Below, piece after piece: positions 4,111-38,248 of a stretch of DNA of 64,000 nucleotides (positions within the stretch are counted from its first letter, which is position 1; every line of letters starts with the position of its first letter). The notes below the pieces were generated by a model. The model saw nothing but the letters and a program-made list of their open reading frames with translations. It was not told the origin of the DNA and did not search any database. The DNA is from Pelomyxa schiedti (Eukaryota; Protista; Evosea): assembly GCA_020536535.1 (NCBI GenBank), contig JAHLWZ010000807.1:1-64000 (forward strand). The letters run 5' to 3'. The translations under genes were made by a program, and so were the position numbers.

Positions 4111-5320
4111 TCCTACACACCCCACCACCCCACTGGGCTGCACTCCACGCTTCCATTCCTGGCCTGAAGTTGGTTTTCCACTTCAGGCAAAAGAAAAAAA
4201 AATATTTGCTTTCAGAAAGTACATGGGGCAGAGGGGCTGGAACAGGGACCACCTGGGGACCACTGTGTGTCCACATTGGGAGCTCCCACATCGAGCCCAT
4301 TGTGATTTTACCTCCACCTTCTCCACTTGGGTAGTGTTTTTTCACATTTTGAGACCACCCTTTGGGAACAGCTTGGAACCCACGAAATCACAGTGATATA
4401 GGTGCAGGATACACTCAAGTTAACCTGGTGCGGCAATGCCTCTCATGATACACCTGAATGAAAGTGACCTCCAAGAGATGTTTCCGAAAATGAGTGTTAG
4501 TGCCGTCTGCAAGTTATCCAGCCTCATTTCCCTCCTCCGGCATTCTGTGTTTGATAGTGGAGCTCCACAACGGCAAAAATTTAGAGTGTGAGGAGTGATG
4601 GGCGAAGGATTAAGGGAATGTTGGTGTGATGATTGGGCGCCAAGTTGGCCAACTAATTATGGCCATTCACGGGAACCAGCGAGTTCGAACCAGCGAGTTC
4701 AAGCTAACAGACCCCAGCCAACCAACCCACTTATAAACCCCTCTGTATTGTGTAAATAGTTAAGACAAAGTTGTTAGAGAAACAAACACAACACATGAGA
4801 ACAACAACACTGTTCAGCCCACAACGTCCCTCTCCCAGACCACCACTCTTACAAGAGTACCACTGCCACCCCGGTGTGCTTCCTCCCGATTCCTTTCTAT
4901 ATAGTTGTTACTGAGAGTAGAGGATATGATCATTCACATTGGTTCCATACCTAACGTTAAAATTTAGGCTCCCAGCACCTAAGACTCTATTTATTGGAAA
5001 CCTTCCGCCTAGTGGTATAGAAAGTGACTTGTTGGAACAGTTCCACGATAATGGCATTGAGGTATTTCTCATCCCCCACACCTAATTTTCCTCTCAGAGA
5101 GTTAAAGTAGCACGGGACTTAGACCAGAAGAGCATGGGGTATGCCTTTTTGGATTTTTCATCTGAGGTGCATATGCATCACTTTATGGAAACAGTGGCAG
5201 AGCCTACACTCAAAGACTGTAGGCTCCATCTGGAGCTATACGACTTCTAATTGTTCAGAGGTAACTTGTGTTTTTTGCTCCCTTTCTTTCATTGTTTCCT
5301 TTAAAAGCAAAAAACCTAAG

Positions 5321-5398
5321 TTGCAGAATAAAATACTCAACAGAACGCTGTCATTGTCGCTCAGGATCGGCGGTCTGGTGTTTTTTTTATTCCGCCAA
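5321..5398 (+). repeat. Dispersed repeat copy 1 (partial), immediately upstream of GTPase paralogue A
   Basis: aaata.tcaacag..aacgctgtcat..gtcgctcaggatcggcggtctggtgtttttttt.att.cgccaa is shared with 13802-13898. Confidence 0.9.
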
Positions 5399-5426: not shown

Positions 5427-7958
5427 ATGTGGCGCTCAGCGAGCGTGAGAAGGGATGCGCCACCGAAAGCACACACGAAACCATTCTTCGTGCTGATGGG
5501 AGATGTGGGATCAGGGAAATCGACCCTTTGCGAGAAACTCACCGGCCGGACTGGTCTCAGCTCCGACTCCGCCGAATCATTCACAAAGGAGTCCAAGATT
5601 TTTCTTTCTGTCTCTCGAAAGCTGGTTAATAACCAAACATACACGACAAAAAAAAAAACCAAACGATAACGTCCCTAATTCCCGAAGCTTGGCCTCATTC
5701 CTTTTTTTTTATCCCCCAAGGTTGGTGCAGTTGAACGACGATACTGGATCGCCGACACACCAGGTCTCAATTCAATGAAAGGCCGTGTTGATCATGCACT
5801 GAATGTGCTTGGAGCGATGAGATTCAAGCCAGTGACGTGCCTGCTCATGGTTTGCTCCCTCAAGGACAGACTCGATGGTTTGGCAAAGGCACTTGATGAC
5901 CTTGTTACTCCATTCATCGAAGAGTTCGGGAACAATATTGCCGTGATTGTCACTAAGTCTGACTTGTGTCAAACTCTCGCAGTACATGAGATAACCGGTG
6001 TTGCACTGAATCTGGGCCTCTGTAACGTTATGGTCACGAGCAAAGGCACAACAAATGCGGAACTGCTAGCATTCTTACAAAAACTAGAAGGAATCACACC
6101 AATTGACGTAACCATTGCACCCGAGAACTTGGTGTCATACTTCAACTTGACGCCTCCTAACTTGAGAATGCGAGCCGTTTACAACAAGTACGTGGCGCAC
6201 TATAAGAATTTGGCCGAGTCAGGCACACAACAGATGAACACTTTGCAAGGAGATGACAAACGGGACTTCGCGTTTTCGTTCAAAGCAATGATGTATGATC
6301 TCATTCCGAAGTTTCAGGCCCAACTTTCTGAGGAGCTGGGAGACAGCGAAGCAAGCCTCCTTTTCTGTGGTGAAATAAAGAAAGAGTTCAAACGTAAGCT
6401 GCTCGAAATCCGCAACCACTGCAAAGAGGAACTGTACGTGAACCACAATTCTCAATTCAGACAGTGCCCTTACTGTGGAAATATTTGGGTCCTCGTTGAA
6501 GGTTCCAAAGGAAAAACTGTTTGTGGGAATAGACCCTTAACGGCAGAAACTTGGAGGCCTTTCAATGTTTTTGATTTCGATATCAAAAAGCTTTTAAAAC
6601 TAAATCTTACAGGACCCAACTGGGCAGCAAGTACAACCACAACTAGGAGTTGCCGGTTCACCGATGCACAGATAGAGAATTACCTGTCAGATCCCAAAAC
6701 TCCAGCAGAAACGGCGAGGGCTATGAGAGCGTTGCGCACCATCATCACAAAAACGAGCCAAGACTCTGTGAACCAACACATTTCTGCACTCGACCCAACA
6801 ACAAAAAGTGCATTGAGGAATCTGTGCCGGCAATATGCTTCTCGTCATTCTCAGTCCCGGCCTTCTCGCTTACTCAATCGCTTCTTTCCCCCAACAGAAG
6901 AGGACATGTTCGAGACCAACGAACTGAAACTATGCTTTGAATTCACAATTGCGCCGTTCTTTGAACGAACAACAGGAGGATCAAACCCAGAACTTACTAA
7001 GCCCTGTGGAAGAACCATTGCATGGAAGGACATGGCTCCTGTTCCACCGCCATCTGACTGGGCCTCGCAATCGGAAAACCGTATGACAACTGTTGATATC
7101 CAGGACTCACCAATTGACACCAGCCTTCATCGTCATCTCAAAAGCAAGATTACCGCAGAGGTAAATGTCGCCGTCGACCCGCGTGTCGCGGCCGCTTTTG
7201 GAGCACTTAAAACTATGAGAAGATGGAGCCAGAGCGACCAGTGCGTGATCAAAGTTCGCGACGTTATAAGTGGGCAGTTTTGCTTCCCAGTACCTGAAGG
7301 AGGACCAGAAATTCCACTGAGAATTTTGATTGAGACCAATCCAAAATTCAAGGACCCAAGAGTGGAACTTGTAGTGAAACATGCAAGGGGCTGGAGTGGT
7401 CTAGCTGACGACGAGATTCGAGTTATTTCAGGCTTCACTGCCAAATTTTTTCCCACACTAACGCCGGATATCATGGGTTATCTCCTGCAATCGCTCACCA
7501 AGTGCCCTGCAATGCCTGGCAAGGTCTACAGTGTAAGCAACCACCGAGACACAGAAAACCGAAATACCCAGTGCCTGAAGGGCAGGTACATCATTTGGCC
7601 AGACTTTACAGCTTGTAGCCGGAGCTTCCCGTCAATGCGGCTCTTCAACCTGAGCACCCCAACAACACTGTATGAAATTGACCAAGGCTCAGGGGTCGAC
7701 ATCGACCCAGTCTCTGTCCGGAAGTTCGAGGACCTTACAGTCTTAATTCCCAACACTGTGTTCCAGGTTGTCGACATCGCTTGGGGATGTGAAGCGAGCT
7801 ATGACACAGTGCACCTCAGGGAGGTTCCTAGGGGAGCAGATCTACTGGGCATGATGGAGTGCACAACTTGTGAAGCTGAAGTGGAGGGACCCTGTTCTGA
7901 AACTAGCCAATCTCCCGTGGCATACATGCCGACCAGTGCCATCAAAGGTAACCCATAG
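5427..7958 (+). CDS. Paralogue A: P-loop GTPase (TRAFAC, AIG1/MMR_HSR1-like) + helical region + Cys knuckle + degenerate ART-fold C-terminal domain
   Basis: Exon 1 has G1 GDVGSGKST. The acceptor at 5720 gives VGAVERRYWIADTPG (G3) in frame with ORF 5775-7958, which has G4 VTKSD and CPYC..VEGS..TVCGNRP. The C-terminus reads KCPAMPGKVYSV..WPDFTACS..TLYEIDQGSGVDI..VLIPNTVFQV..VHLREV. The donor at the position used by the paralogues reads AT (5598), so the intron start is uncertain (candidate GT at 5625). Confidence 0.8.
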
Positions 7959-8065
7959 CGTGACACACACCTCGCCAGTACATAGCTCGCTTCCCTTTCT
8001 TTGAATCCCCAAGTTGATCCAAATAATGAACGATTTAAATTAATTAAAATCGGGTTGAAAGGGCA

Positions 8066-11000
8066 ATGGCCTCTCCACAGCCGACAAGGGCTACTACTTC
8101 GACCCCGCAGGCACCGTTTTTCGTGCTAATGGGCGACGCGGGATCAGGAAAATCAACATTGTGCGAAAAACTCACCGGCAGGACCCTTCGCGGAGTCACA
8201 TCGGAGTCCAAGGTGCGTGTCTCGCCCCCTTCTATTCTTTTCCTTTGACATCTCTTCTCGAGGTTTACCCAATTGAGAGAGGATACTGGCTAGCAGACAC
8301 ACCAGGTCTCAATTCAACGAGACGCCGTCTTGATCATGCACTGAATGTGCTTGGAGCAATGAGATTCAAGCCAGTGACGTGCCTGCTCATGGTTTGCTCC
8401 ATCAAGGACAGACTCGATGGGCTGGAACAGGCCGTCAGTGACCTCGTCACTCCGTTCATTGAGGAGTTTGGGGACAACATTGCGGCCATTGTGACGAAGA
8501 ACGATATCTTACCTACGATCACGCCGAAGCAAATCCGCACAACACTCGTGGAGCTGGGAGTGGAGAGAGTGATGGTAACGAACAAAACCACAACAAAGGC
8601 GGAGCTGGTTGCTTTCCTGCAAACCCTTCAGGGAATCCCTCCAATTGATGTAACAATTGCACCCAATAACTTGGTGTCATACCTCAACTTGTCCCCTCTT
8701 AACCTGAGGATGCGAGCCGTTTACAACAAATACGTGGCGCACTATAAGAAGATGGCTGAAACGGGCACACAACGGATGAACTCATTGCAAGGAGATGACA
8801 AACTTGATTTCGCTTTTTCTTTCAAAGCATTCATATATGATCTCATTCCGAAGTTTCAGGCCCAACTTTCTGAGGAGCTGGGAGATAGCGAAGCAAGCCT
8901 CCTTTTCTGTGGTGAAATAAAGAAAGAGTTCAAACGACAACTGTTGGAAATCAGGGGTCTTTGCAAAGAGGAGCTGTATCTAAATAGTGATTCTCCATTC
9001 CGGAGGTGTCCTTATTGTAGCAAAGTATATATTGTCACGAAAGGCTGTGAAGAAAGCGCTGCTTGTCACAGCCGACGGTTGGCTCCTGGATGCAACTCAC
9101 CACCCACCACGCCCTGCGAAATAACTATTGCATGGAAGGATATGGTTCCTGTTCGACCTACATCTGGGTGTACCACCCAGTTGGAACACAAGAAAAGAGA
9201 GGTTGAAGTTGAGAATTATGCAAATAAAACAGCTCCAAAGAGGCAGGCTAGCCTCGAGACCGATATCAAGTTAGGCAGTGATTTACACACTTCTACGAAG
9301 AAACATACTTCTTTGATATCCAAAAAGGATGGCGAGCGTCATGTAACCTCAAAGATCAGTATTGCTGTAAGGAAAAACACATCATCAAGCTCAAGGAGGA
9401 GAAAACATGAAATTGCGGTTGAGGCGGCCAAACCAAAGATTGACATTGACACACACAACATGACGGGAATTGAAGTGAACGCCGGTGCACCTGTTGCTGG
9501 TGACAAGCCAAAGCTCGATGTCAGTGTGGTTGATGAAGCCACACGGAAATCAACCTCATCAAGTATGAAGCCACCGTTCAGCGGGGCAAAGAAATCAAGA
9601 TCATCCTCTTCCAGCTCTCGGAAGAAGAAAGCGGCAATCAAGGTGGATGCTGGTGTCAAGGTTGATGCTGGAATCAAGGTCAGCGGTGACAAACCAAAGG
9701 TCGAACCACCGAAGAAGAGTGGAGGGTTCTTTGGCTTCTTCGGCGGCCCCAAGCCAGAAGCACCCAAAGTCACTGTTGGTGCCAAAGGGAAGCAATCCAC
9801 TTCGTCAAGCTCTCGGAAGAGGAAAGCAGCACACAAGGTTGATGCTGGAATCAAGGTCGGTGGTGACAAGCCAGCAATTGGGGCCACTGTGACGGTCGAT
9901 GGTGGTGTGAAGGTTGATGCTGGCGCCACGGTGGAGGCTGGAATCAAGGTCAGTTATGGCAAGACAGCAATTGGTGACAGTTTGAATGTTGAGAGACTGA
10001 AAATAAAGCCCGCATCCCCCAGTTCTATCTTGAAATTTGATGAAGACAAAGTCGGAAAGTCTTCCAGTGACCCACACCTTAAGTCACTTGATATAGGAAC
10101 CCCAGTAACCCTTCCTCAAAAGACAGTTAGCGCACCAATATGTCACATCCGAACAGATGAGGTGGAAGGACTGTGCAACTGGATGGGGCTTCAACATTTT
10201 GATTACAATACACACTTCAAAGTAACAAGAGATGATAGGACCGAGGAGCTAAGCAGCAGTCTTCCAACTTTCGTTGCTGCGGAGATTTTCAGTATGTTCC
10301 CCTGTCCAACGTGGCTGAAACAAGTCGAATTCTCACCCATTTGAAGGAGCCAGAACCCTTTCTGAATTGGGCTACCAATGCAAAGCACTAGTAATTGGGC
10401 ACTATGGCCCTGACAGACGTTTCAGTGCTACAACTGCCATTTCTGACGTTTGCCTACTTCCCTTTTCGATATTTTTCCTTATTTTTAATTTTATTCATTT
10501 GCAATAGTTTCTGCGGCGCACGTGTAACTTCACAGTTGTGGAGGAACCAAGCTCAGTCACGTGGAAAGGCACCTTGGATCGATTCCTGGCTTTACCTGTC
10601 GATAATCTGGAGTCTGCAAAGGTATGTCCTGCAAAACTCTACATTTGTCTCACAAATGGCCAAGGTGGCAAGCATTTTTTATTTTACAGGAACTGTGAAA
10701 CAAGTTGGCAACCAACAGAACTTGTTGTTGGCTGATGACAGTGCATTTTCTCCCACAGACTACATGATGCCACTTAGCAATATTGTGTCCCGTATAGCCA
10801 TGGAATCTCATTTGATCATTGCCATAGTGGATGCAGTCCAATCGGAACACGTTTGGGGGCAGTGGGTGTGGAATGTTTACTTCCAACAGCCACTCATCTT
10901 GATAGGTACCTCAAGGAGCATTTTCTTACCTCAGAGGAGCTGAACAGTTAGCACGAGAACATCTCCCAACAGGGTATTACCTGGTGTTATCGATGAATCA

Positions 11001-11276
11001 AGGTTGGTTTTGTTCGGTGACTGTCATACTCAACAAACAGCAGGTTATGAGGTGTCTGAGAGCAAAAGAAAGTTCACCAGTTGTTTCAGAGATGGTACTT
11101 CTTTTTTTGTTATACTGTAAGATTTATTTATGAACACAGAGCTTTTGAGTGCAACGACAGGGACACCTTTTGATGACATTGTGGATCGCGCTGTGACTCA
11201 GGTTCAGTTAGGCACAAATGGATGCCTGTGTCCTTGTGTCAATGACACTGTAGGCACCACTTTCGCCCTTTTCTGA
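8066..11276 (+). CDS. Paralogue B: P-loop GTPase + Cys knuckle + K/S/G-rich repeat linker + catalytically dead caspase-like (Peptidase C14) domain
   Basis: G1 GDAGSGKST, intron 8213-8262, then DTPG and VTKND. GT-AG introns 10292-10346, 10448-10507, 10622-10664, 10866-10905, 11003-11040 and 11095-11139 keep one open frame to TGA 11274-11276. The spliced tail reads KALVIGHY..FLRRTCNFTV..SIFYFTGTVKQVGNQQNLLLAD..IAIVDAVQS..PTGYYLVLSMNQAGYEV..KFTSCFRDEL..FDDIVDRAVTQVQLGTNGCLCP..TFALF. Confidence 0.8.
9370..9975 (+). repeat. Coding repeats KVDAG(I/V)KV(S/G)GDKP alternating with SSSSRK blocks inside paralogue B
   Basis: caaggttgatgctggaatcaaggtc at about 9657 and 9833, with a variant at about 9910-9950. 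tcaagctc..ggaaga-type blocks at about 9385, 9612 and 9805. Confidence 0.85.
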
Positions 11277-11383
11277 CTTGAAAAAACAAGTTCCTCGATA
11301 ACAAAGCAACTTGGAGAACGCAACTGAATGCCTTCGAGTTCACTCTTCCTGTAAACAAAAAAAGCCCCAACCAACAACCAAAA

Positions 11384-13764
11384 ATGAGAAGGGTACCAAC
11401 GGTCCCGCCGAAGGCACCGTTTTTCGTGCTAATGGGCGACGTAGGCTCCGGGAAGTCAACGTTGGTCGAAAAACTCACTGGGTTGACTGGTCTAAGCTCA
11501 CGTCAAAGCATTACGTTCACATTGGACTCCAAGGTTCAGCACCCTTTCTTTTTGTTTTTTTCCTAACCGATGTGTTTCAGGTTTTTATTGTTGACCAAGT
11601 GTGCTGCATCGCCGACACACCAGGGCTGAATTCTATGAAAGGCCGTATTGATCACGCACTGAATGTGCTTGGAGCGATGAGATTCAAACCATTGACGTGC
11701 CTGCTCATGGTTTGCTCCCTCAAGGACAGACTCGATGGTTTGGCACAGGCCGTCAGTGACCTCGTCACTCCGTTCATTGAAGAGTTTGGGAACAACATTG
11801 CGGCCATTGTGACGAAGAACGATATCGTACCTACGATCACGCCTGAGGAAATCCGCACAACACTTGGGGAGCTGGGAGTGGAGAGAGTGATGGTAACGAA
11901 CAAAACCACAACAAAGGCGGAGCTGGTTGCCTTCCTGCAAACCCTTCAGGGAATCCCTCCAATTGATGTCACTATTGCCCCTGCTCAGTTGGTTTCCTAC
12001 TTTAAACTGGCCCCTCCCAACCTGAGGATGCGAGCCGTTTACAACAAATACGTGGCGCACTATAAGAAGCTGGCTGAAACGGGCACACAACGGATGAACT
12101 CATTGCAAGGAGATGACAAACGTGATTTCGCTTTTTCGTTCAAGGCATTCATGTATGATCTCATTCCACAGTATCAGGACCAACTGAACCTGGAATTGGG
12201 AGAATGTGAGGGAAGCCTCCTTTTCTGTGGAGAGATGAAGAAAGAGTTCAAACGACAACTGTTGGAAATCAGAAATCAATGCAAGGAGGAACTCTACCTT
12301 TCCTCCAACTCACAGTTCAGGAAGTGCCCTCACTGTGGAAATGTTTGGGTACTGGTTGAAGGTTGTACAGGAAATACTGTATGTGGAAATCGGCCGCTAG
12401 CTGCTGACGTCTGGCGCCCATTCAGCGTATTTGAGTGGGACGTCAATGCCCTCTCCACTCCGGAGTACAACTGGCCAACAAGCCCTGCCACCACAAGAAC
12501 CCACGCCTGCCGATTCACGAGCGCACAGGTCGCACAGTACTTAGATCATATCAGCGCACCAGAAAAAAGACAAGCAATGATTTTCTTGAACACCCTCTTC
12601 ACAAATACAAGTCAACCAAATCAAGACAATGTCAACCAACAGATAGCTCTACTTGCAGCAGAAACGAAGAGAGAGTTGGAAAGGATGAGCCGTGAGCACA
12701 TTTCTCGGCAGGAAGAAGACTTCAGCCGGGCGTATCGCATACTCTGCCCTCCAAAGGAGGCAGAGATCTTCAGCATCAACCAGCTAAAACTTTGCTTTGA
12801 ATACACCCTTGCCCGTTTCTTTTCACACGAAACTGCAGGGCGCAGACCAGAACTCCCGAAGCCTTGTGGAAGAACCATTTCATGGAAGAACATGGCTCCT
12901 GTGCCCCCACCACCCGAGTGGACAAAACAGTTGGAACACATGGAGAGAACTGTTGATGTGCAGGACTCTACAGTTGACCTCAACCTTCACCAGCATCTCA
13001 GCAGCAAAAGCACGCCACAAGTAGCTGTTGTTGCCGACCCATGCATTACAGAAGCTTTTGACGCTCTGAAAACCATGCGAAAATGGAGCCAGAGTGACAC
13101 TTGCGTTGTGAAGGTTCGCGACATGGCTGATGCTGGCAAGTTCCTCTTCCCACTCCCTGAAAGACCAGCTACCCCTCTTACAAGTGTGCTTGCCAGCAAT
13201 CCCAAGTTCAATGACCCCACTGTGAAAAGTGTGGTGGCCAACAACAGGGAGTGGAATGGCCTCGCGGATGACGAAATTGGACTTGTTGCGTTGTTCGCAT
13301 CTGGCCTGCTTTCTGATAATCTGCACAAGGCATTGGTGTACAGAGAACCAACAGCAGACAACCTTGAAATCGCAAGTCACCTTCTTCAGGTGCTCAATAA
13401 GTGTCCAGCAAAGCCTGGGAAAGTGTACCGGGGAGTAGAACTCCACCAGGCCGCCTCACGTTACGTGCCTGGCAAGTGTGTGATTCAAGATTTTTTTTGT
13501 ACTTGCACCAGGGATTCCCGTATTGTTGAGCAGTATGCAAACACCAGTGGGTCTGTAATGGGGCCTAGGACACTTTTTGAAATTGATCAATTCTCTGGGA
13601 TTGACATCCAGTGCATGGCAGCTCATAGGCCACAAAGCACTCTCTTGACACCAAACACAGTTTTCCAGGTATTAAGTGTGGAACGCGAGAGGAAACTGGA
13701 CAAAATACACCTAAAAGAGGTTCATGGAGATGATCTTCTACTCATCATGGAGCACTCCACCTAG
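11384..13764 (+). CDS. Paralogue C: P-loop GTPase + helical region + Cys knuckle + ART-fold (R-S-E class-like) C-terminal domain lacking the catalytic Glu
   Basis: ATG 11384, G1 GDVGSGKST, intron 11534-11580, DTPG, VTKND, CPHC..VEGC..TVCGNRP. The C-terminus reads LADDEIGLVALF..LHKAL..LLQVLNKCPAKPGKVYRGV..FFCTCT..TLFEIDQFSGIDI..PQSTLLTPNTVFQV..IHLKEV. Confidence 0.85.
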
Positions 13765-13801
13765 GTCTCTGAACACTCATGCATTGTTTGTTACACATTT
13801 G

Positions 13802-13898
13802 AATTGGCTGAAAAAAATATTCAACAGACCGGAACGCTGTCATTTTCCTTATCGTCGCTCAGGATCGGCGGTCTGGTGTTTTTTTTATTTCGCCAATT
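13802..13898. repeat. Dispersed repeat copy 2, an imperfect palindrome (MITE-like)
   Basis: Ends aattggc / gccaatt, inner caacagaccg / cggtctggtg, and an A-run facing a T-run. The core is shared with 5321-5398. Confidence 0.8.
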
Positions 13899-14019: not shown

Positions 14020-16410
14020 TCAGGACTTCTTTTTGGTTGTTGACGGGAATGTTACGAGCTGTTGAGTTTCAATATCCCCTTTCTTGCATTTCCTGAGTCT
14101 CGTGATTACACACAAGATCAGAAGGATGAGAGTGATAGTTAGTAGAAGTGGTGCATAAAGCCTTCCTGGGGAGTGTGTTCGGGGAGCTGGAACAGAGGCA
14201 AGAGTAAGTGCTGCAACAGCTACTGTGCGAGTGATAGCTGTGTGGTAGTTTTTATCTATTGAACTTGTGGTATCTTTGTTGTCATGATAGCCGGCCCTCC
14301 GGAAGTTATATTCGGCATTGAAGTGCTCGTTCACTAGCACAACCTAAATATGGAGTGAGATGGGGTTACAGCAAAGGGTACTTATACTGGGTAACCAGCT
14401 AAGGCCACAGTTATGCCATCGGTGTTGTAAAGAAAACTTGTGGAGTCCCACCTGTCTGGGGAGATTACCTTCAGATTTGGAGCTTCTTGTTGTGCTGCAG
14501 CCATAAGAATTTTAGCTATGTAAGAAGATTGCCTTGTGTCACTTGGGTTGATCTTGTTTGCGTGAGTACGATAGAAAAAATTAGTGTGGTTACCTGAAAC
14601 GTGTTGTCACTGTTGAACCCAATCATATCCAAAACTATAAATGCTGTAGCATCGCGCCTCATTTCTAAAAGTTTACTAACAAGAAATCTTGCCCCAAGAT
14701 CATCAGCAGGAAATTCCTTTTATTGTGCACTGTCACTCACTACAAGGAAATGGAAGGAATAAAACCTCTCCCACGAGGTGAGCAAGCCAAATATCCCTCT
14801 GAAGAGAACTGACATCTTTCAATACTTGAGCTATGATCATAAGGGCTGCCGTTCCAGAGGCGTCATCATCAGCACCAAGAGACGCAATCAGAGTTTTATT
14901 GGTGGAATACACATCTTCACGCCATGCGACATCAAAGTGATCAGCAATGATAATGGGATACTTCCCGGAATTACTATTTCGACCAGGAATAACCGCCACA
15001 AGGTTTTTGAACGCTTTTCCTTGCCAACTGACTTTTTGCGTCCAAGTTTGCAGTCCCATGCTGGTATAGTATTCGGAGAGGTAGGTGACCACTTCCTGCA
15101 ATTTTGATTCTTCTGCTAAGTTTGAACACTGGCGATGATTTAAGTACAGCATAGGGTGCCTTTCAACAGGTACTTCTCCTGCTTGCTGTTGTGTGAGATA
15201 ATGTAGCTCTTCTGTGAAAGTGCTTGGGAAAGAAATGGTTCGCACGTGCGGTGTATCTTGAAGACTATGCGCTTCTCTCATTGCCTTAGTATTCACCCAG
15301 TTCCATTCCTTGGGCCACTCAACAATTCCATCACATACGTGGAGGAGAAAAGAAGTACTCTCTCCACGTACACGTGGGGGTTGCGGAAGATAGATACAAG
15401 CCCGCTGGTTGAGTTTTGGGGTCACGGAGTACAAATTGGACATCTCCAGAGGCAGCCAGGAAGATCGCCCGGGAAGTGGTACTAAAGTAGAATTGTCCAC
15501 CCATAGACAGTCACCAAAAAAAGGCTTATTAAACCAGAACCACTCAGATGGGGGGCCTAAAACAAGATAAAAAAACATGGATCAAAAAGAAGAATAATGT
15601 ACCTTGGAAGATACACTGCGAACCATAAGTCTCAGAAGGACGGTATAACTCTGCAAATAATGGCTGTGTTTTTTCGTAAGAAGAGGGAAAGAAGGCCCAA
15701 TGGAAATTGCCCTCGCTAAATGATGGAGTACTTGAACGTTTGGATTTCTTCCACCTAGCAATTGCCCAGGTAATTTGGCCAAAGTCATTTTGCACAGGCC
15801 AAGCCTCCACATCAATACACTCAGGGATTTCTGGTTCTATCGGATTGAGCAATATTTTGTGGCTTTTTTGTTTTTTTTTTGTGGTTGGTGTTTTATTTTT
15901 GCTCCATTATCTTTCTAATTTTTGCGCACTTCCAATTGCCGTAGTCTGTGATTCGTTGTTGTTAACAAATAGCATGTCCCATAATCCTCTAAAGTGCGCT
16001 TCACCCAACGCCTTCGCAAAATCCGGCAGGTCAATCCCGCCCCTCGCGCACCCATAACACTCAAACGACGACTCGCACCTCCCAACATCCCCCTCCATCA
16101 CTTTCTCAGTCTCCGTCTCCGTCCCTGCAACCCCAGTCCCAGTCCCAACCCCACTGGCCAACTCCCACATGCTACCACACAGATACAGTGCCGTCCTCTG
16201 TTCCGAGAAGGCATAGTACGTGCCTATCGGCTTGGTCTCGAACACGTGTGCACTCAGAGGTTGCTGCGCCTGTCGTACGGCGTCTCCCTGCAGATCCGAC
16301 GCTGGCCCAACTGCAGTTGCAGTAGATATGAATGAGACTGAGACTGAGGCCAGCAGCGCCCAGTAGCAGTTGCACCCACAAAGTACAACGAAGACCGGGT
16401 GCACGTGCAT
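14020..16410 (-). CDS. M28-family zinc peptidase with N-terminal signal and C-terminal transmembrane anchor (multi-exon)
   Basis: Motifs IADHFD, GADDDASG, VGE|EFPADDLGAR, LDMIG, LYNTDG and GYHDNKDT. Hydrophobic N-terminus from ATG 16410 and C-terminal PLLLTITLILLILCVITRLRK. The 5' exons are less certain. Confidence 0.8.
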
Positions 16411-26066: not shown

Positions 26067-29000
26067 ATGAGCGGACGCGGACGCGGACGTGGACGTGGCG
26101 GCCGAGCAGGATCTCGTGGCGGGCGTGGCGGGCGCGGTGGGGCATCGTCCTCACGCGGGGGGTCGCGCGGTGCATCGCGTGGCGGGTCGAGGGGCGGTTT
26201 TGGCCCTCGTGGTGGAAGAGGTTTGTTTTGTTTCGTTCTGTTTCGTTTTTTTTCTTTTTCCCCCCTAGAAACTACTTGCTCACTCGTGTTTAACGTGTAG
26301 GGGGTGGTCCTGGTGGCGACCCTTTCTCTGGTCTCCCTGGTTTCGATGCGGCAAACCAATTGCAAAAGCTCAAGGATGTTGCTGTGTTCTCCAAGCTTTC
26401 TCCTAAAGAGCTTCGTGTAACAAAGAACGCGCTCCTTAATGTTGTATCAGCCTCTCTTGTCCGGGAGGTAATACTTTAAGGGTTTTTTTTTTGTTTTTTA
26501 ACTTTCTTTTTCCAGCCCAAATTTGATTCCCCTACCTCTGCAACTGTAAAGATAAATATCTTGGTTACACAGATTGCTTTTTACGATCCCGAGTTCATTT
26601 TGAAAGTTGCCCTTTACATGCGAACAGAACTCAATATTCGTTCCACCTCAAATTATGTGGTTTCCTTGGCTAGCAACATCAGACATGTAGGACCAAAGTT
26701 CGCTTTTTGCAAAATAATAAGCTGTTTAGTGTTCGCCCTTCCTTCGCAAATACTGCAAGGCCACAATCAGGCTACCCTCTGATTGGCTTGACATCGCTTC
26801 TACCTACCAGTGCCTCCCAGACAAGACTTTACGTGGGAATGGTTGGTTCCCCAATATCTTTTTGAGGTATTAAACCGCTGCAGCCCTTCCAACGGCTCTA
26901 CGAAAGGCCCTGGTGGATAAGTTCCCTGATTTTGATGTTTATCAACTTGGAAAATACAACAAAGAGAATTCCCTCAAGCGCAAGAAGAAGAAGCTCCGCT
27001 TAAAAGCCGAAAAGGAACCCACCAAGGCTGTATTCCAAGCTGGTATATTTTTCTTAATTTCAGGTTGGAAACTAAACTCTACACAGGTAAACCTCCTGTG
27101 ACGATTAAGCAACTTGTCCGACAGCTCCACATCTCTGAGCCTCCTTATCATGTTATGTGTATTTTGGGTAAGAAGTACCCAACAACAGAAGAAGAGTTCA
27201 AGAGGAATAGATTACCAGGCGAGTTCCAACCCAAACTTGCGGGAACTCGCATGAAATTCCCCGTACCAGAAACCTGGGAAACTCTGCTGTCTCAAAAAGG
27301 CAATAGGGTACAAATTCCAACAGACTAATGCGTATGAGTAACTTTTATTCAGTCCTCAACTTGGGAGGAGCTAATCGAGCACAAGAAGCTTCCGTTCATG
27401 GCAATGCTTCGAAACCTCCGCAATCTAATCTTCACTGGCGTTCACCCACGATACCACAAGTAAGTTAAAGCTTGAAACAAGAGAAACTAATTCCTTTACC
27501 AGGTGGGTAATGAACAAGCTTACTAATGAAGGGACAATTGCTAATAGCAAGCAATTCCCTTTCCGATTCTTCAGTGCTTATGAAGTCATTCCCAAAGATC
27601 TTAATGACTTTAATGAACAGCTGGATAAAATGAACAATCCTAAGAAAGCTGCTGCTAAGGATGGCGATGCAACTAAAATTCGAAGGAAGAAGAAAAACCC
27701 CATCGTCCCCACACACAGACCACAAGATGACCTCTTCGAGAAATACAGAGCTGCCCTCGACACAGCTGTGAAACATGCTACTACCCACAACGTAAAGCCC
27801 ATCCGGGGAAGCACGGTTGTTTTTTGTGACGGCAGTTCAGCGATGAGGGTATGCTTCTCCTTGTGGTTACATCAAATCCTAATTTAAACTATAGGAGGCA
27901 CAAAACCAGTGCGGAGTTGGCAAGTTCAATCAATTGAACCAATTGGGTATCCTCCTTGGCCTTATGTGCAAGTATGTTTGCGAAGACTGCGACTTCCGTA
28001 TCTTTGGTGGTGAAGTTGACGGTTCCCGCCACCGAAGCGTCACGTTGATGGAAGGAACAATTCTAGAAAACATGCGTATCGTCGAGGAATCCAGCAAAGC
28101 TTTTGAAAATGGTGCTGCACAATTCCCATTCGACTACTTTGAAGACCTCATCAAGAGGAAGGAAATAATCGACAATTTCATTGTCTTGTCTCACCACCTA
28201 ATTCTGCCAACCGAAGAAGGAAGTGGGCCAAATACCATCCCCAGCATTCTTCACAAATACCGGCAAGAAGTCAACCCAAGAATGCTATTCGTGAGTGTAG
28301 ATCTAAGTGGAAGAGGAAGCAATATCAGCCAGGGTGATGATGAACACCCCAATGATATCCTTGTCAGTGGTTTCTCGGATGCTATCCTGAGGTTCATAGC
28401 CGAAAGAGGTGATACCAACCAACTGCAGTACGTGGAGCACATTGACATTGCACACAACTTGGTTAAGAAATCTACTGTTGAGGCTGTTGTTTCTCCACTT
28501 TATGCACCCGAGCCCCCCAAAAACCCACTTGCAGCTCTAGAGGCTCCCAAGATTGAGGAGAAGGCTGAGCTGCCGGCTCCTATGAAGATTTTCACCACTG
28601 AAACGAAGTGGCGAACTTGCAGGGTTTTCATCTCTTCCACCTTCCTTGATATGCACGGAGAACGTGATATGCTCACACGGAAGGTTTTCCCAGAATTGAG
28701 GGACAGATGTATGTTTAGCATTGAATTTTCTGCAATCTCACTCATTTCCAGGCGCCAAGAGGCATATTCACCTTTATGAAGTAGATCTTCGGTGGGGTGT
28801 AACCGAGCACGAGACACAACAAGACAAAGGACTTGAACTGTGCTTGGATGAAGTCCAAAACTGTTCCCCGTTCTTTATTGGCTTGGTTGGCAACCGGTAC
28901 GGCTGGGTCCCCAACGAGTACACAGTCCCCGACCACGAGCGCTTTGATTGGGTCAAGTCATACCCGGTAGGCCGAAGTGTTACCGAGCTGGAAATGTACA

Positions 29001-32000
29001 GTGGAGCCATCAAGGATAGCAATCCTCATGCTTTCTTCTATTTCCGAAATCCTGCCCTCGTTTCTGAGATCCCTCAGTGAGTTACCCGCTTTCCTTTTCT
29101 GCTTCTTTAACGTCCCTCAGGGAACACCAGCGTGCCTTCGCCTCCGAATCACCTGAAGCAGAACACCGGATTAATGAACTCAAATCGATGATTCGTTCTG
29201 CTACAAACAATGTGGTTACATACAATGCCTCTTGGAGGGGTATTGTCGATGGCAAGCCTATGACGGGAAATCTTGCTGCACTGTGCAAAAGAATTACAGA
29301 AGACTTGTGGAAAAACATTACTGCGGTATTTTCTTTTTCATGAGTTTATTGAATATGACTTTTCACAGGTTTTCCCGGAGGAATCCGCTGAAGAGTGTGA
29401 CGCTCTTGATATTGAGCAGGCTTATCACGATGCCTTCGCTGAAGACAGACGGAAGTTGTTCGTTGGAAGAAAAGACGTGTTGACTGAATTGACCAAATGG
29501 TGCGATGAACCAGCTGCTGGCACTATTATTCTCACTGGGCCTCCTGGCTGTGGAAAATCTTCCATAGTTTCCGTCTTCGCCAAGCAATACCAGGTTTCAA
29601 CCAATCAACTTTCCAACCATTCTAACATACTTCAGGCCAGAAAACAGAAAGTTGTGGTACTTCCGTTCTTTGTTGGAGCTTCCCCAGGCTCCACTGACAT
29701 ACGACGCGTTCTCAAGAGTTTGTGCATGCATCTTGCAAAACGATTTGGAATTACAGATCCAATTCCAGAAGATTACAAATCTCTTCAGAAGGTAAGATAT
29801 TAGACATATTGGTTTTGAATATTAACACGGTTTTCCAGACCTTTGCGCGCTTCCTTGAGCAGGCGTCTTACATTGCTCGCCTCGTTCTCATTTTGGATGG
29901 TGTAGACCAATTGGACAAGACCAACCGCGCTCACTCCTTGGATTGGCTCCCTCTTGTCCCTCCAGCCAAAGTGATTTTAACTGCTGCTGAAGGCCCAGTA
30001 CTCAAAGCGTTGTCCCAGAGGACCTCTGCTCCAACCAACACTAATACCCTCCTGGCTCCAAAACTTGGTCCCATGCTCGGAAATACTCGTGAAATCGCGG
30101 TTGGGTCTCTCCCAATTCAAGACGCCAAGCAAGTTGTTCAAGGAGTTCTTGCCGAGTATCACAAAAAGTTGGAAGATGGCCCAATGAACGATCAGCTTCG
30201 CGTGTTGCTGAAGAAAGGCGATGCTGGCCGTCCTCTGTACTTGACTGTTGCCTGTGAGGAACTGCGAGTCTTTGGAGTTTTTGAACAGCTCACTGATAAG
30301 ATTAAGTCTCTTCCACCTTCCCTGCTCAAGTTGTACGACGAAGTTCTGGCACGTCTGGAGCTTGATCACGGGCATGCACTCGTTCCTCAAGCGTTATCTA
30401 TGTTGGCCTGCTCTCGTGGTGGACTGAGGGAAGACGAACTTTTGTGCACACTGAAACGAAACAATGACGAGGAAGCCCTTCCACGTGCAGTCTGGGCACC
30501 ATTGCGCCACGCCTTGAGGGTATTCGTGCGTGGTGATGGTGAAGAAACACTGGACTTTGTGCACGCACAATTTAAGACCGCTGTGGAGAAGAAATACCTC
30601 AATCCAGTGAAGCTTCATGGAATTCATTGCGCCCTTGCAGCTTACTTCATGGACAAGGTAGTTGTGAACAATTCTTCACTGTCTCTAACTGTTCCTCAGG
30701 CTGATCCCAAGCACAATGGAACATATCAGGGTGCGTCCCTGCGTGGTGTGTCCGAACTTGCGTACCATCTGACAATGGCGCAAATGTGGCCACAACTTAC
30801 TAATGTGCTCACATCACTTCATTACATTGAGAAGAAGTGCACCATGGGACTAGCTAGCGACCTTCTTGCCGATTACACATCAGCTGTTTTAATGGGTACT
30901 GAAGGCAGATCAAAGGAGTGGGCTGGCATGGATTTAGTGAAGCAGTTCTATAACTTCGTGTCGAACTCTATCCATGTCCTTTCGGCTCTCCCCCATCTCA
31001 CCTTCCAGCAAGTATGTTTTCGTTGGCTATGTGTTTCCTTATAGTTATTGTGCCTTTAGGCAGCAAATCAACCCGACGTATCTGCTGTTGCCAAGGCGGC
31101 TAAGCAGTTATGGGACGATCATTTGGAAAAGAGAGCTTGGATCAAGTGGGTCAACAAGCCCCAAGTTCTTGATCTATGCCGCTTGACTGTTTCTGCTATG
31201 ACCGACGGTGTTACAAGCACTGCTTTCTCTGCGGATGGGCAGCTCATTGTCTGTGCTTCTAGAGACTGTACTCTGAAAGTGTTTGAGGTGGCAACCGGAC
31301 GTGAACTGGCCACCCTCAAGTCACACTCAAGCCCAGTTATCGACTGCTGTTTCTCACCAGACGGAAAGTTCATTGCCTCTGCAGCTTGGGATAACACAGC
31401 TAAGGTTGTCTAACGTCCTGTCAAATTAGAACCTAACACTACCAGATCTGGGACACAACCAACTTCATCGTGGCACAAACGTTGACTGGTCACAATGAGC
31501 GGTTGTCTGCTGTTTGCTTCACTTCCGATAGTTCCAAGTATGTCCTTTTTTTTTTTTTTTTCTCTAACTTGGGTTCAGGGTTGTCACTGCAGCGTGGGAC
31601 AACACCATCCGTGTCTGGGATGCCACCATGGGATCCTTCCTCTTTGAACTGAAGGGACACAAAAGACCCATCAACTCATTGTCCCTTGTTCCAAATGGAA
31701 ATATGATTACCTCAGGTTCGTACTATTTCCACGATTAAAGTTGTAACAATTACACAGGATCTTGGGATGGTGAATTAATCGTGTGGAACTTGGATACAAA
31801 GGAAATGTTTAAGAAGCTCAAGGGACACGAGAAGTCCATCAAAACTTGCTCTTTCCATCCAAATGCCCGACAATTGATTTGCAGTTCCAAGGACGGAGCC
31901 ATTATGCTGTGGGACGCCCAAAGTGAAAAGAGAGTTGCACAGATTGGCTCTCACGCCCTCCCTACAAATTGCAGTGTTTACAGTGACATTGGAGATTATG

Positions 32001-34213
32001 TAGCAAGTGCTAGTGACGACGGCAGTGTGAAGGTGTGGGATGCTACCTTGGGTAAGGAGACCGCTACCGTGAAGCTTGAGGACAATAACATTGGTGCTAT
32101 GGCGCTTAGCCCGGATGAGCGATATTTGGCTGCTGCGCACTCTGATACAACCATTCAGGTTATTTCTCCTTGTTTGGTTGGTGAACTCACTCCGTTTTCA
32201 GATCTGGGACTTGACACTACTGAAGTCAGTCCGTACGCTGCGAAAACACACCCAGGGGGTTACTAGCCTGGGCTACAGACCTGACGGCCGCTTCATTTGC
32301 TGCGCCTCGGTCGACGCAACAATGAGTGTGTGGGATACTAAGTCTTGGGAATGTGTGCGTGTCTTGACTGAGCACACTGCCCCAGTCAACTGTGTCAGTT
32401 TTTCGCCAAATACACCCAGAATGGTGTCGGCTAGCGACGACTTCTCGTAAGCAGCACAGAACTCTACAAGTGATCTAACCTTTATTTAGATTGATCATGT
32501 GGGATACGAACACATGGAAGCCTGTAGCCACTCTCAAAGGACACACTGCAGTGGTGAAGTGCTGTGCCTATTCCCCTGATGGAAAACACATCGTCTCGAT
32601 TGCTCGGTATGAGAGCTCAAACATTCTTTCCTCCTTACTTCTTGCAGTGATGGCACAATCCGTGTCTGGCACGTTGAATCTGGGAAGTTGCTCCACACCA
32701 TGTCTGGCCACCTTGATTGGATCAACTACTGCGCTTGGTCTCCTGACTCCAAGAAGGTGGTGACTGGTGCTTGGGATTTCAACTGCAAAGTCTGGAGTAT
32801 GAAGAAAGGAAGAGAAGTAAAGGCTATGCAAGGCCACGGAGGATCAGTGGAGGTTTGCAAGTACAGCCCAGACGGAAAGGTGATTGTGACTGGCTCCTAT
32901 GACAAGTCGATGAAGGTGTGGGATGCCGAAGGGGGGACTGAAATTACTGCACTTAATGGCCACGGTGCTCGCATTAACTGCTTCGTATTCATCCGCGGTG
33001 GAAAGAGTTTGGTGAGTGCCGCCGATGATAATACACTGAAGGTTTGGGACCTCCTTGCATCGAGAGAGGTTGCCACACTTGTTGGACACAGTGCCTCAGT
33101 CCGCAAATGCTCGTTCTCACCAAAGTCTGAATTGATTGCTACTGCCTCCGATGATGGTACCGTGAAGGTGTGGGACTGGAAGCGTCAAGCGGCAGCTACC
33201 AAGACCGCGGAATCGATGAGACACGCTGGCTCCATAACAAGCTCATGCTTCTCTTTGGAGGGTGATTTCCTTTGCACCTGTGCTTCTGATGGCTCTATAA
33301 AACTCTGGAACACCCTGGTCACAGATGAAGCCTCCCTTGGAAAATGCGTTACTCTTGCCTTGGGTGGTGGGGAGACACCCGCTGTGCGATGTTGTGTCTT
33401 TGCTAAAGGAGGTGTTCTTGCTACGGGAAATGACCGAGGCCTTATTACTCTCTGGAATACCAAGGATTTCACGGTAGTTGGTACTCTTTCAGGCCACACT
33501 AACGCTGTGCGTGGGCTCGCCTTCACTCCTGACGGGAAGCACCTTGTGTCTGTTTCTTGGGATACCCGCGCCATAATCTGGAGTGTCGCAGGCCTAAATC
33601 AAGTTCGCGAAGTAACTGCCCACTCTGAGTGGTTGGAGTGTGTTGACATCAGTCCGGACGGCAGTCTCGTCGCCACAGGTTGATCTCTTTCCCGTGCGTT
33701 ACCAATGTCCTCACAATTTTCTTGTATAGGTGGTAGGGACAACAATGTTCTCCTGTGGGAATTTGCTACTGGTGAGGTTACTGGGTACCTCAATGGCCAC
33801 ACACAATGGGTCATGTCCCTGGCCTTAGGTGGAGATCATAAGATTGCAACTGCCTCCTACGATAACACTATGAGGTTCTGGGACCTTGCTGTTGCAGGCT
33901 ATGGCTCTGTTGCCTGTGAGGGTCACAAACAAGCAGTACGTTCCCGCATTTTGGCAGGCTTTTGTTTTAACTGTATTTGCAGGTTACGTGCGTGAGGTTC
34001 GCACCAAACGGCAGGCACCTTATCACATCGTCACTTGATCACACTATCAAGCTGTGGGATAGCAGCACACCAACACCAAAGCCCGTTCTGGAGTTCATGG
34101 CAGTTTCTCCATGCACAAGTGTTTCTATCTCGCTCAAGGCACAACTCCTGGCTTGTGGTGACCTGCTTGGCAACGTTTACCTCCTCAAGTACACACGCCC
34201 CGCAAGAAGCTAA
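26067..34213 (+). CDS. TEP1: Telomerase/vault-associated protein 1 (TROVE + vWA + DUF4062 + NACHT NTPase + WD40 repeats) with an N-terminal RGG box
   Basis: [46 protein letters not shown] and [14 protein letters not shown] (TROVE); [16 protein letters not shown] and DLRWGV (DUF4062); GPPGCGKSS and ILDGVDQL (NACHT); many GH..WD repeats up to the stop at 34213. Confidence 0.92.
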
Positions 34214-34302: not shown

Positions 34303-37300
34303 TCACAAAAAGTAGTCCCATAGCAGGAGCACGGCTTTGATCGATGGCCTTGAGGATGGGTTGCGTTCCAAGCACACCCTCACAATCTCATGTGCCAGTC
34401 GATGAAGGCGCCAGTGATGAAGGTTTTGTGTTAGTCTGCGAGGCGCTGTGGTTATGGGTGTGTTTTGTGGTTTTGGAGGAGGAATGGGGAATGGAGTGAT
34501 GCAACCCCTGAGGAGGTCCCGGCCGATAACCCACGGGCAAAGGCGGGGCAGGTGGGTGCTGTTATGGGATGTGTAGGGTGTGAAGAGGTATTTGTTGCTC
34601 CTGGTTGGTGTTTTTCCCGACGTGAGGTGGGAATATGGCTGTTTTAACGGGTACAACAGCAGGGATGCTGTGATTCCTTTGGACAATGTCAATCAACGAG
34701 CTGGGAATTAGAGAGATATGGGAGTTAGGTTTACCAAAGCCCCAGACATCGGCCTTTGTGTCAAACGTCAGTCCGGAAAGAACCTCCGGGGCACAGAAGT
34801 TCACATCCTCTGGCGAAATTGGCGTTGAAGCCGGCATACAGTAGGATCCAAATAAGAGGGTAACCGGTGTGTGGGGAGCCTTGATCTGAATTCCCTTTGA
34901 CGAAAAGAAAGGATGATTGTGAACGAACGAACCTTTGCCCAAGGACCGGGTCCAGATTCATCCAGTGACAGAACAATGATGTTATCTGTTTGCATTAAGT
35001 TTTAGTTGAAGGAGGTGTCATGTCATGCACATACCAGGCGAAATTTTGGTGTGCACATTTGGGGAGTTCGGGCCATTGTGAAGGCGATCTAATGCCTGTG
35101 CCACATCCTTCAGAATCTTCAACCTCGAACTGATTGGGAGAACTCGGTCGAGGATGGATGTAGTCCCATTCCCTTTTCTGATGAGTGAAGTCAGAAGCTC
35201 ACCCAAGCTGATGCATTGGTCAATATTGATGTATGACCCAATAATTGCCCCTATTGCAGGCGGGATGATGGGTCTTGGTGATCCTGGTATTTTTATCTCT
35301 GATTCAGAGGGAGTTGTATCCCGATGAAGTGCCACAATGTTGGGGGCAACTGATACAAGATCAACTTCACAATTTCCATTTTCACACGTCAACTTGTGTT
35401 GCCCATTTTTCACTGCATTGAGGATGTGCTCCTTGTGGAAGTAAAACAAGTTGGATGGCAATGCGGATGGTTTGTCATTGTCAGTCCACTTATCCGGTGA
35501 AGAATTGCCCTGCATCAGGCAATGGGGACAGGGGAAGAGCTCAATAACCCCAGGGAATGGTGCCCCACTTTCTTCCTCAAATCGAGACTGACTCAGATTG
35601 TAAAGAGTTCCCATAAGGGATGCCCAGAGGTGTTCTTGCTGTGGGTGTTCGTTGCACTCTGATCGCAGGTAAATCGAAACCATGTCATCTTGGAATGTAA
35701 TGAACAATAGGACTTGTTGTTCTGATCCTCCATGTGAGCAAGAGTATGAGAACGAGAGTGCATCCCTCCAACAGAACTTGATAACCCACCCACTAGAGAG
35801 AAGAGACCTTGAAATACTTGAAATGGCTTTGAAGAACAAGTCATGAGGCAACAATGGGAGTTTGATCGATCTCCCATTCGATGTGACCGGAGCAGTGAGG
35901 GAAATGTCAGCGTGAAATTGTTTTAGTATAGCAGGGGGGATAGTGTGAACCAGAGGGAGAAAGGAGCGGTGTCCCTTGACGATATGAGAGAAATTTGACA
36001 GGGTCTTGTGAACATCACCAAACTCAACCAAAAGTGACCCTAGCTCATTCATTGAGGGGTTTTTTCTGTTTTGTGGCTCTTGTCTATCCGTTATTATGAA
36101 CTTCTGGAGCTGAGCCAAAAAGGAGTAAGGTTCGACAATGACCAATTCAGGTAGATGTATTGGTACCGCGTGTGACAAGAGCCAAAAAGGATACCTGAAG
36201 TGAACAATGGTCCCAATGTCCGCCAAGAAGTTTGCACACAGCTCAATCTCCAGTGCTTTCGACATACCACACCTCCTGGCCAGCTTACAAAATTGAGTCC
36301 AGGTAAGTAAGAACCTTTTGTCCCTACGTTGTATAACTTTCTTGTTCAGTGCAATCCAAGTCTGTGGAACAGACTGGGGAATTCCATCACATATTTCACC
36401 TTGAATAAAGTCAAGGAGTGAATATACACATCTGGGTTCTTCTGCTCTATGAGATTTTTCATACTTCCATCCCTTTCCATTGCTGAGTTGCAGCAGGAAT
36501 GCAATAGGAATGTCTTCCAAAATAAAAATTCGATTCATGAGGTCGGTGACATTAGGGGCATTTGGGTCAATTCCCTCCATGTGGGTTCCAACAGGGATTA
36601 TGCTCCTCCATGCCTTGTCACCGCGGCTTCTCGCAAATGAGATTTCATTCACCCAACGATAAACTGCCATGGAGGGTTCCTTCATCTGCAACGCCTTGGA
36701 TACATCAAAAACGAGGATGATTACGGACCTGCTGAGGAGGAACCATTGGTGAAGCGGTGACAGAGAATCCCCTCCTGTGTGTTTTATGAGTATCCCATGA
36801 AGCAAAAAGGAGCCATACCAAGGTCCCAAATAGTCATATTGTGCCCAATTGTAGTGTTACGTGTATGATGCACAGCAATAGCGTGCGTGTGCTTTGTGGT
36901 AAGTGTCAGCTTTTTTGTACTCTCCATGAACTTCAAAAGTGTTGTCTTCCCAACACCAGTGTCTCCCACAATCACAAGTTTATGTGTGTTTTTCTGAATC
37001 TCGTTTTGTCTTTGGTTCACTGTGTATTCCTTTTTTTCATTTCCCAATCTCACATTGGGCATTTCAACCAACCACTTGGGAATCTTTTTAAGCTTGTTAT
37101 TGGAGAGGTTGAGCGTCCTGCACGTCAAAGGCCTCAATGATTCGGGAACAGACTCCAATTTTAAGTCAGAAAGGTCAACGTTCTCAGATTCTGTGAGAGA
37201 CCGAGAAAGGCACACAACACCAAGAGCAGCCTCGTTCCTTGTTTTCACCCAGGTCCTCAGTGCCATTGACACTGTGAAGAATGGGAACTGCGGTCGGTAG

Positions 37301-38248
37301 TCGTGCACTAGTTGCATGATCATGTGGGCTGTGATGACATCAGCACATGTGATATCTAGAATGGCCGGTATCACAGGAACCAGAACTGGTTGAGATACAG
37401 GCAGTGTAATGTCACTGAAGTGGCAAAAGGTTATTGGCGTTTGGCACAGTGGGACCTCTGGGGATTTCGCTATTACTGACAGAAGGGTGTCCAGAGTTCC
37501 CAGTTTTGGTGTCCATTTCAACATTTTGTAAGCACAAAACTAGTGTATGTCAGAGTATTTTTACAAAATAAGACCCGGACATTAAAAGCCATATGAATGG
37601 GCAGCAGTGTGTGCTTCACTCTATCTGTTTCTGGAAACTGCGCCATTGTGTCACTGCAGTCAAGAAGTAGGGTTACACATGATAGTGGAACCTTAGCAGA
37701 TGCTTCTGGGAACCTGCTTCTTGACATACCGATCAGATCATGCAGTATCCTGCTTATCGCTCCACAGGAATCCCTGTACTCACCAGTGTGAAGGATCAGC
37801 AAGACTTTTTTACCAACCCTGACAGGTTTGGTGAGTGGGACAGAGAAAGTTGATTTTTTCCCCATTGGAAACTGGGACAGCCATACCCATAGCAAAGTTT
37901 ATTTGCTATAACTGTGGAGTCACAGTCCCCAGAGCATCGGTAGAAGAAACACATCTGTTCCGGGTGATTACAGTCCCCGGGATCCCACAATGTCAGCTCG
38001 TTACACGTCTGTGCCATGCTAGACATCACGACTTTGTTGTCAGAAATCTCTTTCTCTGTATGTAGTGACCTTCCCCCCTCGGATTCGGTCTCAACAGGTC
38101 GAGCCATTCTATTGAGCTTGATCCATTTGATGTTAATGTTGATGCTTGCTTGTAGTTCGCCGGCACTGGCTACAGCAGTGAACACAGAGTCGACACAAGG
38201 CTTGGAACCAACAACGAAACACAGCCGATTCTTCAATGCACCAGCCAT
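34303..38248 (-). CDS. Roco-family protein: degenerate N-terminal GTPase-like region, LRR, Roc, COR and truncated pseudokinase
   Basis: LDLS/LNLSNNKLKKIP (LRR); KLVIVGDTGVGKTTL, IWDLG|G and VGTHME (Roc); VPQTW, FLADIGTIVHF and CWRD (COR); LKILKDVAQALDRLH..VHTKISP|DNI, FCAPEVL and DTKADVWGFG (kinase C-lobe). Confidence 0.8.

Follow-up and report, generated by a model that had tools for sequence, protein, structure and literature searches.

Three adjacent, co-oriented genes, here called A, B and C, were analysed in a 64,000-nucleotide stretch of Pelomyxa schiedti DNA (assembly GCA_020536535.1, contig JAHLWZ010000807.1, positions 1-64,000, forward strand; hereafter the window). In each gene a putative GIMAP-like GTPase is followed by a helical stalk, a split zinc finger and a C-terminal tail resembling an enzyme, an ADP-ribosyltransferase (ART) in A and C and a caspase in B, from which, by motif, catalytic residues are missing. 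We infer that the products are most likely GTP-gated defence scaffolds; that their tails have been retained as non-catalytic binding modules, serving as decoys or regulators, is the reading we favour, at about even odds. The genes correspond to the annotated Pelo_10992 (protein P0002), Pelo_10993 (P0006) and Pelo_10994 (P0001), in agreement with the tandem arrangement proposed in a preliminary description of this DNA, and the shared first-intron acceptor proposed there is found in all three, 11 codons upstream of the DTPG motif (5721, 8263 and 11581). A short exon 1 carrying the P-loop is followed in each case by a long exon 2, and the features of the array are as follows.

Gene A exon 1: 5427-5624, + strand; G1 P-loop at 5499-5525, no RNA contigs over the exon
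Gene A exon 2: 5721-7958, + strand; rest of the GTPase (G3 at 5754, conserved-box Arg at 5859-5870, G4 at 5952), helical stalk, split zinc finger, linker and ART-like tail
Gene A split zinc finger: 6465-7025, + strand; halves at 6465-6527 and 7002-7025, with Ser at the fifth-cysteine position
Gene A degenerate R-S-E-type ART: 7398-7826, + strand; Arg and ExE sites not conserved, 12-amino-acid deletion in the N-terminal helix
Gene B exon 1: 8066-8212, + strand; G1, with a 6-amino-acid deletion in switch I
Gene B exon 2: 8263-10291, + strand; GTPase, stalk, insert-less zinc finger (9007-9135), 324-amino-acid Lys/Ser-rich repeat linker and start of a P0159-like tail (from 10135)
Gene B pseudo-caspase exons: 10347-10447, 10508-10621, 10665-10865, 10906-11002, 11044-11094 and 11140-11276, + strand; neither the His site (10677-10694) nor the Cys site (10824-10844) conserved
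Gene C exon 1: 11384-11533, + strand; G1
Gene C exon 2: 11581-13764, + strand; GTPase, stalk, split zinc finger (halves at 12325-12387 and 12862-12885, with its fifth cysteine), linker and ART-like tail
Gene C degenerate ART: 13258-13728, + strand; retains the Arg, has T-x-T instead of S-x-S and is without a conserved ExE site

By sequence homology, the tails of A and C have the ART fold, as had been suggested. Their matches to Pfam PF01129 are below the cut-off (A, E 0.011; C, E 0.00029), while both match a profile built from paralogue tails at E<1e-54; three of the paralogue tails pass the PF01129 cut-off (E 3.6e-10 to 4.6e-12), and that of P0003 (residues 610-768) matches PDB entries 6dre and 6drh (E 8e-6) with its R, S-x-S and E-x-E motifs aligned, 6DRH being Tre1, an R-S-E ART (available text of PMC8120803). 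This resemblance to Tre1-type and ecto-ARTs has its limits, as the domain is here part of a cytosolic GTPase fusion in an amoeba and A and C lack the glutamates. Protein searches gave at least seven paralogues in Pelomyxa, and all four outside the array (P0003, P0004, P0005 and P0158; annotated as Pelo_4083, Pelo_12938, Pelo_12939 and Pelo_11848 on three other contigs) have the R, S-x-S and E-x-E motifs in full. A tree of 26 modules groups A, B and C together (97/94) inside the set of seven Pelomyxa paralogues (100/99), and because they nest among four paralogues with the full motif, the intact ART is, on this tree, the ancestral state and the apparently dead state is confined to this array. 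The tail of A has lost both the Arg and E-x-E, and that of C has lost E-x-E; with both dyad residues of B also gone, the earlier claim that no tail keeps its catalytic residues agrees with the motifs. That the tails are nevertheless active enzymes, with unusual catalytic residues or an altered substrate, is improbable: catalytic residues can vary among ARTs, and the NAD+ pocket of C may survive with its Arg and T-x-T, but activity falls several-hundred-fold without the key glutamate (both in the available text of PMC8120803), A lacks Arg and Glu alike, and B lacks the entire dyad.

Change in A and C has been concentrated in the tails. The four intact paralogues share 80 unvarying ART sites, of which A and C have each changed 30; in the module the figures are 17 and 18 of 172 sites, respectively (Fisher p 5e-7 and 1.4e-6), so that the tail has changed roughly 4-fold faster; the 16 sites altered in both genes carry the same residue at just one. 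Leave-one-out controls had 2-13 of 82-93 sites changed, and the ART branches of A and C measure about 1.0-1.2 against 0.03-0.26. These counts and branch lengths indicate losses of the catalytic residues that were independent in A and C and specific to the tail. Tail-specific acceleration also agrees with relaxed selection and hence with the main rival explanation, slow decay by birth and death, in which redundant copies have tails relaxing towards loss, B is a chance chimera and function lies with the intact paralogues or with a bare GTPase-knuckle core. Decay would further accommodate the tailless state of most relatives, the lost splice donor, lost fifth cysteine and deletion of A, and the switch I deletion, degenerate knuckle and retained intron of B, and the 5' module could stay intact by gene conversion without selection. 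Set against this, gene C is spliced, a second gene also conserves the dyad-less pseudo-caspase, and neither ART frame has closed despite about one change per site. Under neutrality, 3-7 stops would be expected per gene and the probability of an open frame would be 0.06-0.07 (low estimate) to <0.001 per gene; the truncation site of gene C lies just beyond the ART domain. Between the A and C tails, the proportion of nonsynonymous differences (pN 0.39) is far below that of synonymous differences (pS 0.71), giving a rough ratio of the corresponding rates (dN/dS) of about 0.26 (bootstrap 0.14-0.47), with dS near saturation and 229 of 300 bootstraps usable. Low pN and open frames thus favour pseudo-enzyme tails that have been retained rather than left to decay, the case for C being stronger than that for A, and we regard decay as unlikely. 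The decoy function, the binding of effectors or of NAD+/ADP-ribose and the signalling through the GTPase that the preliminary description proposed are hypothetical.

The fusion in gene B is real at the DNA level, since its exon 2 is one open frame running from the GTPase through the finger and linker into the first 50 amino acids of a tail homologous to that of a second protein, P0159; an RNA-library contig (9025-9382) spans the knuckle-linker junction. A caspase-like fold, as first proposed, is supported by a match of B residues 660-949 to PF00656 caspase clusters at 0.95 in the ESM Atlas, all of them bacterial, and by 59% identity over 271 amino acids to P0159, whose match to PF00656 spans positions 3-232 of 233 (E 0.0055, below the cut-off); Pfam and PDB sequence searches with the B tail itself returned no match. 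The fold is thus like that of bacterial and paracaspase-type peptidases, but neither the His nor the Cys of the dyad is kept in B or in P0159. Because P0159, with a GTPase of another class, also lacks the dyad, B most likely took up the domain in inactive form rather than inactivating a protease of its own. P0159 (KAH3744801.1, Pelomyxa), the sole homologue of the B tail found among proteins of 521-1661 amino acids, is labelled a TRIP12 E3 ligase and holds a GBP/URGCP-like GTPase with the dyad-less caspase domain; despite its label, it gave no HECT match. The linker of B contains Lys/Val/Asp/Gly-rich repeats (9600-9990) that RNA contigs of another gene match at 90-99% identity, and B may therefore be a three-part chimera.

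RNA evidence came from assembled contigs of four runs on a single sample, and these may include DNA. Unspliced contigs, found over 6781-7782 of gene A exon 2, are therefore weak evidence of transcription; contigs also cover most of 11606-13834 (gene C exon 2). Predicted splicing was partly confirmed: one contig has the first intron of gene C (11534-11580) spliced, and introns 11003-11043 and 11095-11139 of gene B are spliced in the one contig covering them, but the B intron at 10866-10905 is retained. At the position of the GT donor of B and C, gene A reads AT; its annotated donor at 5625 lies 9 codons further on, with no RNA contig cover. The stop of gene B was placed at 11274-11276, omitting the annotation's last intron, on the basis of the contig with its two spliced introns and of homology to P0159. 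A candidate 94-nucleotide gene B intron ending at 10758 was rejected, as the His-site strand, which aligns with P0159, would be lost with it.

The G1 (GDxGSGKST), G3 (DTPG) and G4 (TKxD) motifs are present in A, B and C, and the GTPase motifs are intact as first described. The N-terminal module had also been called near-identical; it is common to the three genes, but the GTPase and stalk are 76% (A-B and A-C) to 81% (B-C) identical in protein sequence, and the module is better described as a mosaic. Its DNA identity in 30-codon windows ranges from 0.48 to 0.98, with patches of 92-98% identity that switch closest partner along the sequence, a pattern that points to gene conversion and concerted evolution within the array. 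The AlphaFold model of C has pLDDT values mostly >90 over the G domain and stalk, and the top Foldseek match of the GTPase is GIMAP7 (E 1.4e-7), supporting the earlier likening to GIMAP/AIG1, whereas a VIA comparison did not separate GIMAP from FeoB, MnmE, EngA or Era. Across 83 sequences T46, D62, P64, G65, R100 and T128 are nearly invariant, R100 being presumably the conserved-box arginine of GIMAPs; Pfam matches at E<=1e-5 in these family members are to AIG1 in 6 of 83 and to MMR_HSR1 in 56. The module has the G1-G4 motifs and conserved box of AIG1/GIMAP proteins (PF04548) on a TRAFAC G domain followed by long helices, and differs from them in missing the Pfam cut-off and in carrying a split zinc finger after the stalk. 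It is therefore GIMAP-like in anatomy, with membership of the GIMAP family putative.

Both halves of the finger, the CPxC...C knuckle of the earlier description and PCxxTIxW, are present in all three genes. The insert between them is hypervariable (39-44% identity), and about 145 amino acids of it are missing from B. Family counts here and below rest on the 150 matches listed of 233 obtained at E<=0.001 with the C module as query against 1.84 billion representatives. Among them, 118 of 124 members with canonical spacing keep, in the first zinc loop, a fifth cysteine, which we infer, from the aligned ranges in a comparison with RING2, not to be a zinc ligand. The finger weakly resembles the RING2 of RBR ligases in structural and language-model matches, with no score significant in any test: like RING2/Rcat of HOIL-1, ARIH1 and parkin, it has four putative zinc ligands and a spare cysteine, in a K-x-E-G-C motif, but it has no RING1/IBR partner, second zinc site or conserved His, and its insert is 40-170 amino acids long. 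The residue two after the fifth cysteine is Gly in 98 of 124 members, and His is not among the eight commonest; HOIL-1, with K456, D458 and C460, likewise has no His at +2 (available text of bioRxiv 2022.11.13.516300). Pfam detected no RING1 or IBR domain in A, B or C. With a profile built on knuckle-rich proteins, the PDB matches at E<=10 contained no RBR protein, and the best 25 of 48 Pfam families included no IBR family. A further comparison is RNF213, an AAA+ ATPase with a RING, a CBM20 and an RZ finger bearing a spare catalytic cysteine, which coats microbes (available text of PMC11549300). The likeness is one of concept, an NTPase with a spare-cysteine zinc finger, to which two single family members, P0031 (CBM20) and P0143 (RING), add domains that RNF213 has; the NTPases are unrelated, the finger spacing differs, and any such activity in the present family would be putative. 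The knuckle, first read as structural, may be the real catalytic part of the family. That the fifth cysteine accepts ubiquitin, as in RBR RING2 or RNF213 RZ domains, is possible but somewhat doubtful, and gene A has lost this cysteine. More tentative, and rather unlikely as a whole, is the wider proposal that the GTPase-stalk-finger core defines an unrecognised group of ubiquitin ligases, gated by GTP and working with RING2 alone, which would parallel RNF213 on a GTPase basis in tagging microbes or their vacuoles, and to which Pelomyxa would have added a Tre1-like ART, the array tails becoming decoy sensors twice independently and once by swap.

The preliminary description had further envisaged a polymorphic system of interchangeable tails, which is not supported: the same ART occurs on six of the seven Pelomyxa paralogues found, B being the only swap seen, and most relatives are tailless, a P-loop and complete finger being present in 63 of the 150 matches, of which 49 end <=100 amino acids past the finger (median 52). 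Pfam scans of overlapping sets of 45, 19 and 83 family proteins found ART in Pelomyxa-type sequences only, several double GTPases, and single members with CBM20 (P0031, E 2e-17), RING (P0143, E 2e-5) and SAM (P0141, E 6e-5). By-eye readings of three other tails, as an intact ART (P0119), a CHAT-like domain (P0063, with only ZU5 at E 0.04) and a trypsin-like domain (P0082), were not confirmed by profile tests and were dropped. Among 30 proteins looked up by cluster, the only organisms named were Pelomyxa and Synstelium polycarpum, a family-wide homologue search was dominated by bacterial Der, and a metagenome scan and a phage search gave no match. Open-access text (supplements aside) yielded no account of the family, of a GTPase-ART fusion or of a GTPase-RING2 fusion, consistent with the earlier view that the architecture is undescribed.

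Taking these results together, A, B and C are tandem copies from a Pelomyxa family combining a GIMAP-like GTPase, stalk, split zinc finger and R-S-E ART. GTP binding would drive dimers or coats of GIMAP type on a membrane or microbe, the G domains pairing through the conserved arginine, as GIMAPs do (available text of PMC8857920). Arginine ADP-ribosylation of a target would fall to the intact paralogues; A, B and C, assembling with these by way of the homogenised module common to all, would contribute non-catalytic binding surfaces for recognition or damping, and the fifth cysteine of the finger might accept ubiquitin. The near invariance of the conserved-box Arg argues for this scheme, as does the dyad-less caspase domain kept at 59% identity on two unrelated GTPase classes, that of B and the GBP-like one of P0159. 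The tandem duplication, mosaic conversion and hypervariable insert of the array resemble those of immune AIG arrays; in Biomphalaria snails, AIG GTPases form tandem arrays with assorted fused domains, ART or caspase-like tails not being among the architectures described in the available text (PMC7053062). GIMAP, ART and caspase domains have been treated together as conflict-derived (available text of PMC3417536), and Mastigamoeba is without AIG1 GTPases (available text of PMC8136499). It is quite unlikely, in our estimation, that the genes instead encode non-immune regulators, namely membrane-traffic, symbiont-housing or housekeeping GTPases with inert tails as scaffolds, because the tail folds are of conflict type (Tre1-like ART; bacterial caspase clusters) and duplication, conversion and rapid change are atypical of housekeeping GTPases. 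Plant NLR integrated decoys offer a parallel to the array tails, a dead or diverged, fast-changing enzyme domain on a conserved NTPase, with the differences that the array has a GTPase rather than a STAND ATPase and only two tail types in seven paralogues.

Several observations weigh against the defence reading with retained tails. The immune role is argued by analogy, and the matches to Pfam AIG1 PF04548 (21.6 bits for A, 13.3 for B and 17.7 for C) are below the cut-off of 27 bits. In gene B, the only contig over 10866-10905 retains this intron, which would stop the protein ahead of the second half of the caspase fold, and RNA contigs leave 10057-10698 uncovered, so that the first three tail introns are predicted only. 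Gene A shows signs of decay in its lost donor, lost fifth cysteine and ART-helix deletion, the AlphaFold model of C has pLDDT <50 over the ART region, and the dN/dS of the tails is rough, as stated above.

A direct repeat of ~90 nucleotides (80% alike) flanks the array at 5323-5398 and 13807-13896.

Direct-repeat exact 21-nucleotide core: 5358-5378, upstream of A, and 13856-13876, downstream of C, + strand

RNA contigs from other loci carry this repeat, which is therefore probably a dispersed element; an Rfam search with it returned nothing credible. Directly upstream of A is a small intron-bearing gene (4794-5250, + strand) with an RNA-recognition motif seen by eye only, and downstream of C is a Peptidase M28 exon (14733-15581, - strand; PF04389, E 5e-7). 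Elsewhere in the window are an imperfect palindrome of 163 nucleotides (1708-1870, 80%), a gene at 27400-33700 (+ strand) which by eye we take to be a TROVE-NACHT-WD40 gene of telomerase-protein-1 type, and one at 34500-37550 (- strand) which, again by eye, is presumably a Roco-like LRR-GTPase-kinase.

Little of the cell-autonomous defence of amoebae has been mapped, and Pelomyxa has resident prokaryotes. AIG-type arrays with fused domains are already known from snails, and the contribution here would lie in the family itself and its GTPase-ART fusion, of which no account was found in the open-access text available. A family with a strictly kept spare cysteine would, if the proposed ubiquitin transfer is true, represent a new class of nucleotide-gated E3 ligase, and even if the array tails merely decay, an undescribed GTPase family and a GTPase-ART fusion remain. 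The presence of matched intact and non-catalytic paralogues in one genome makes the decoy idea directly testable outside plants and animals.

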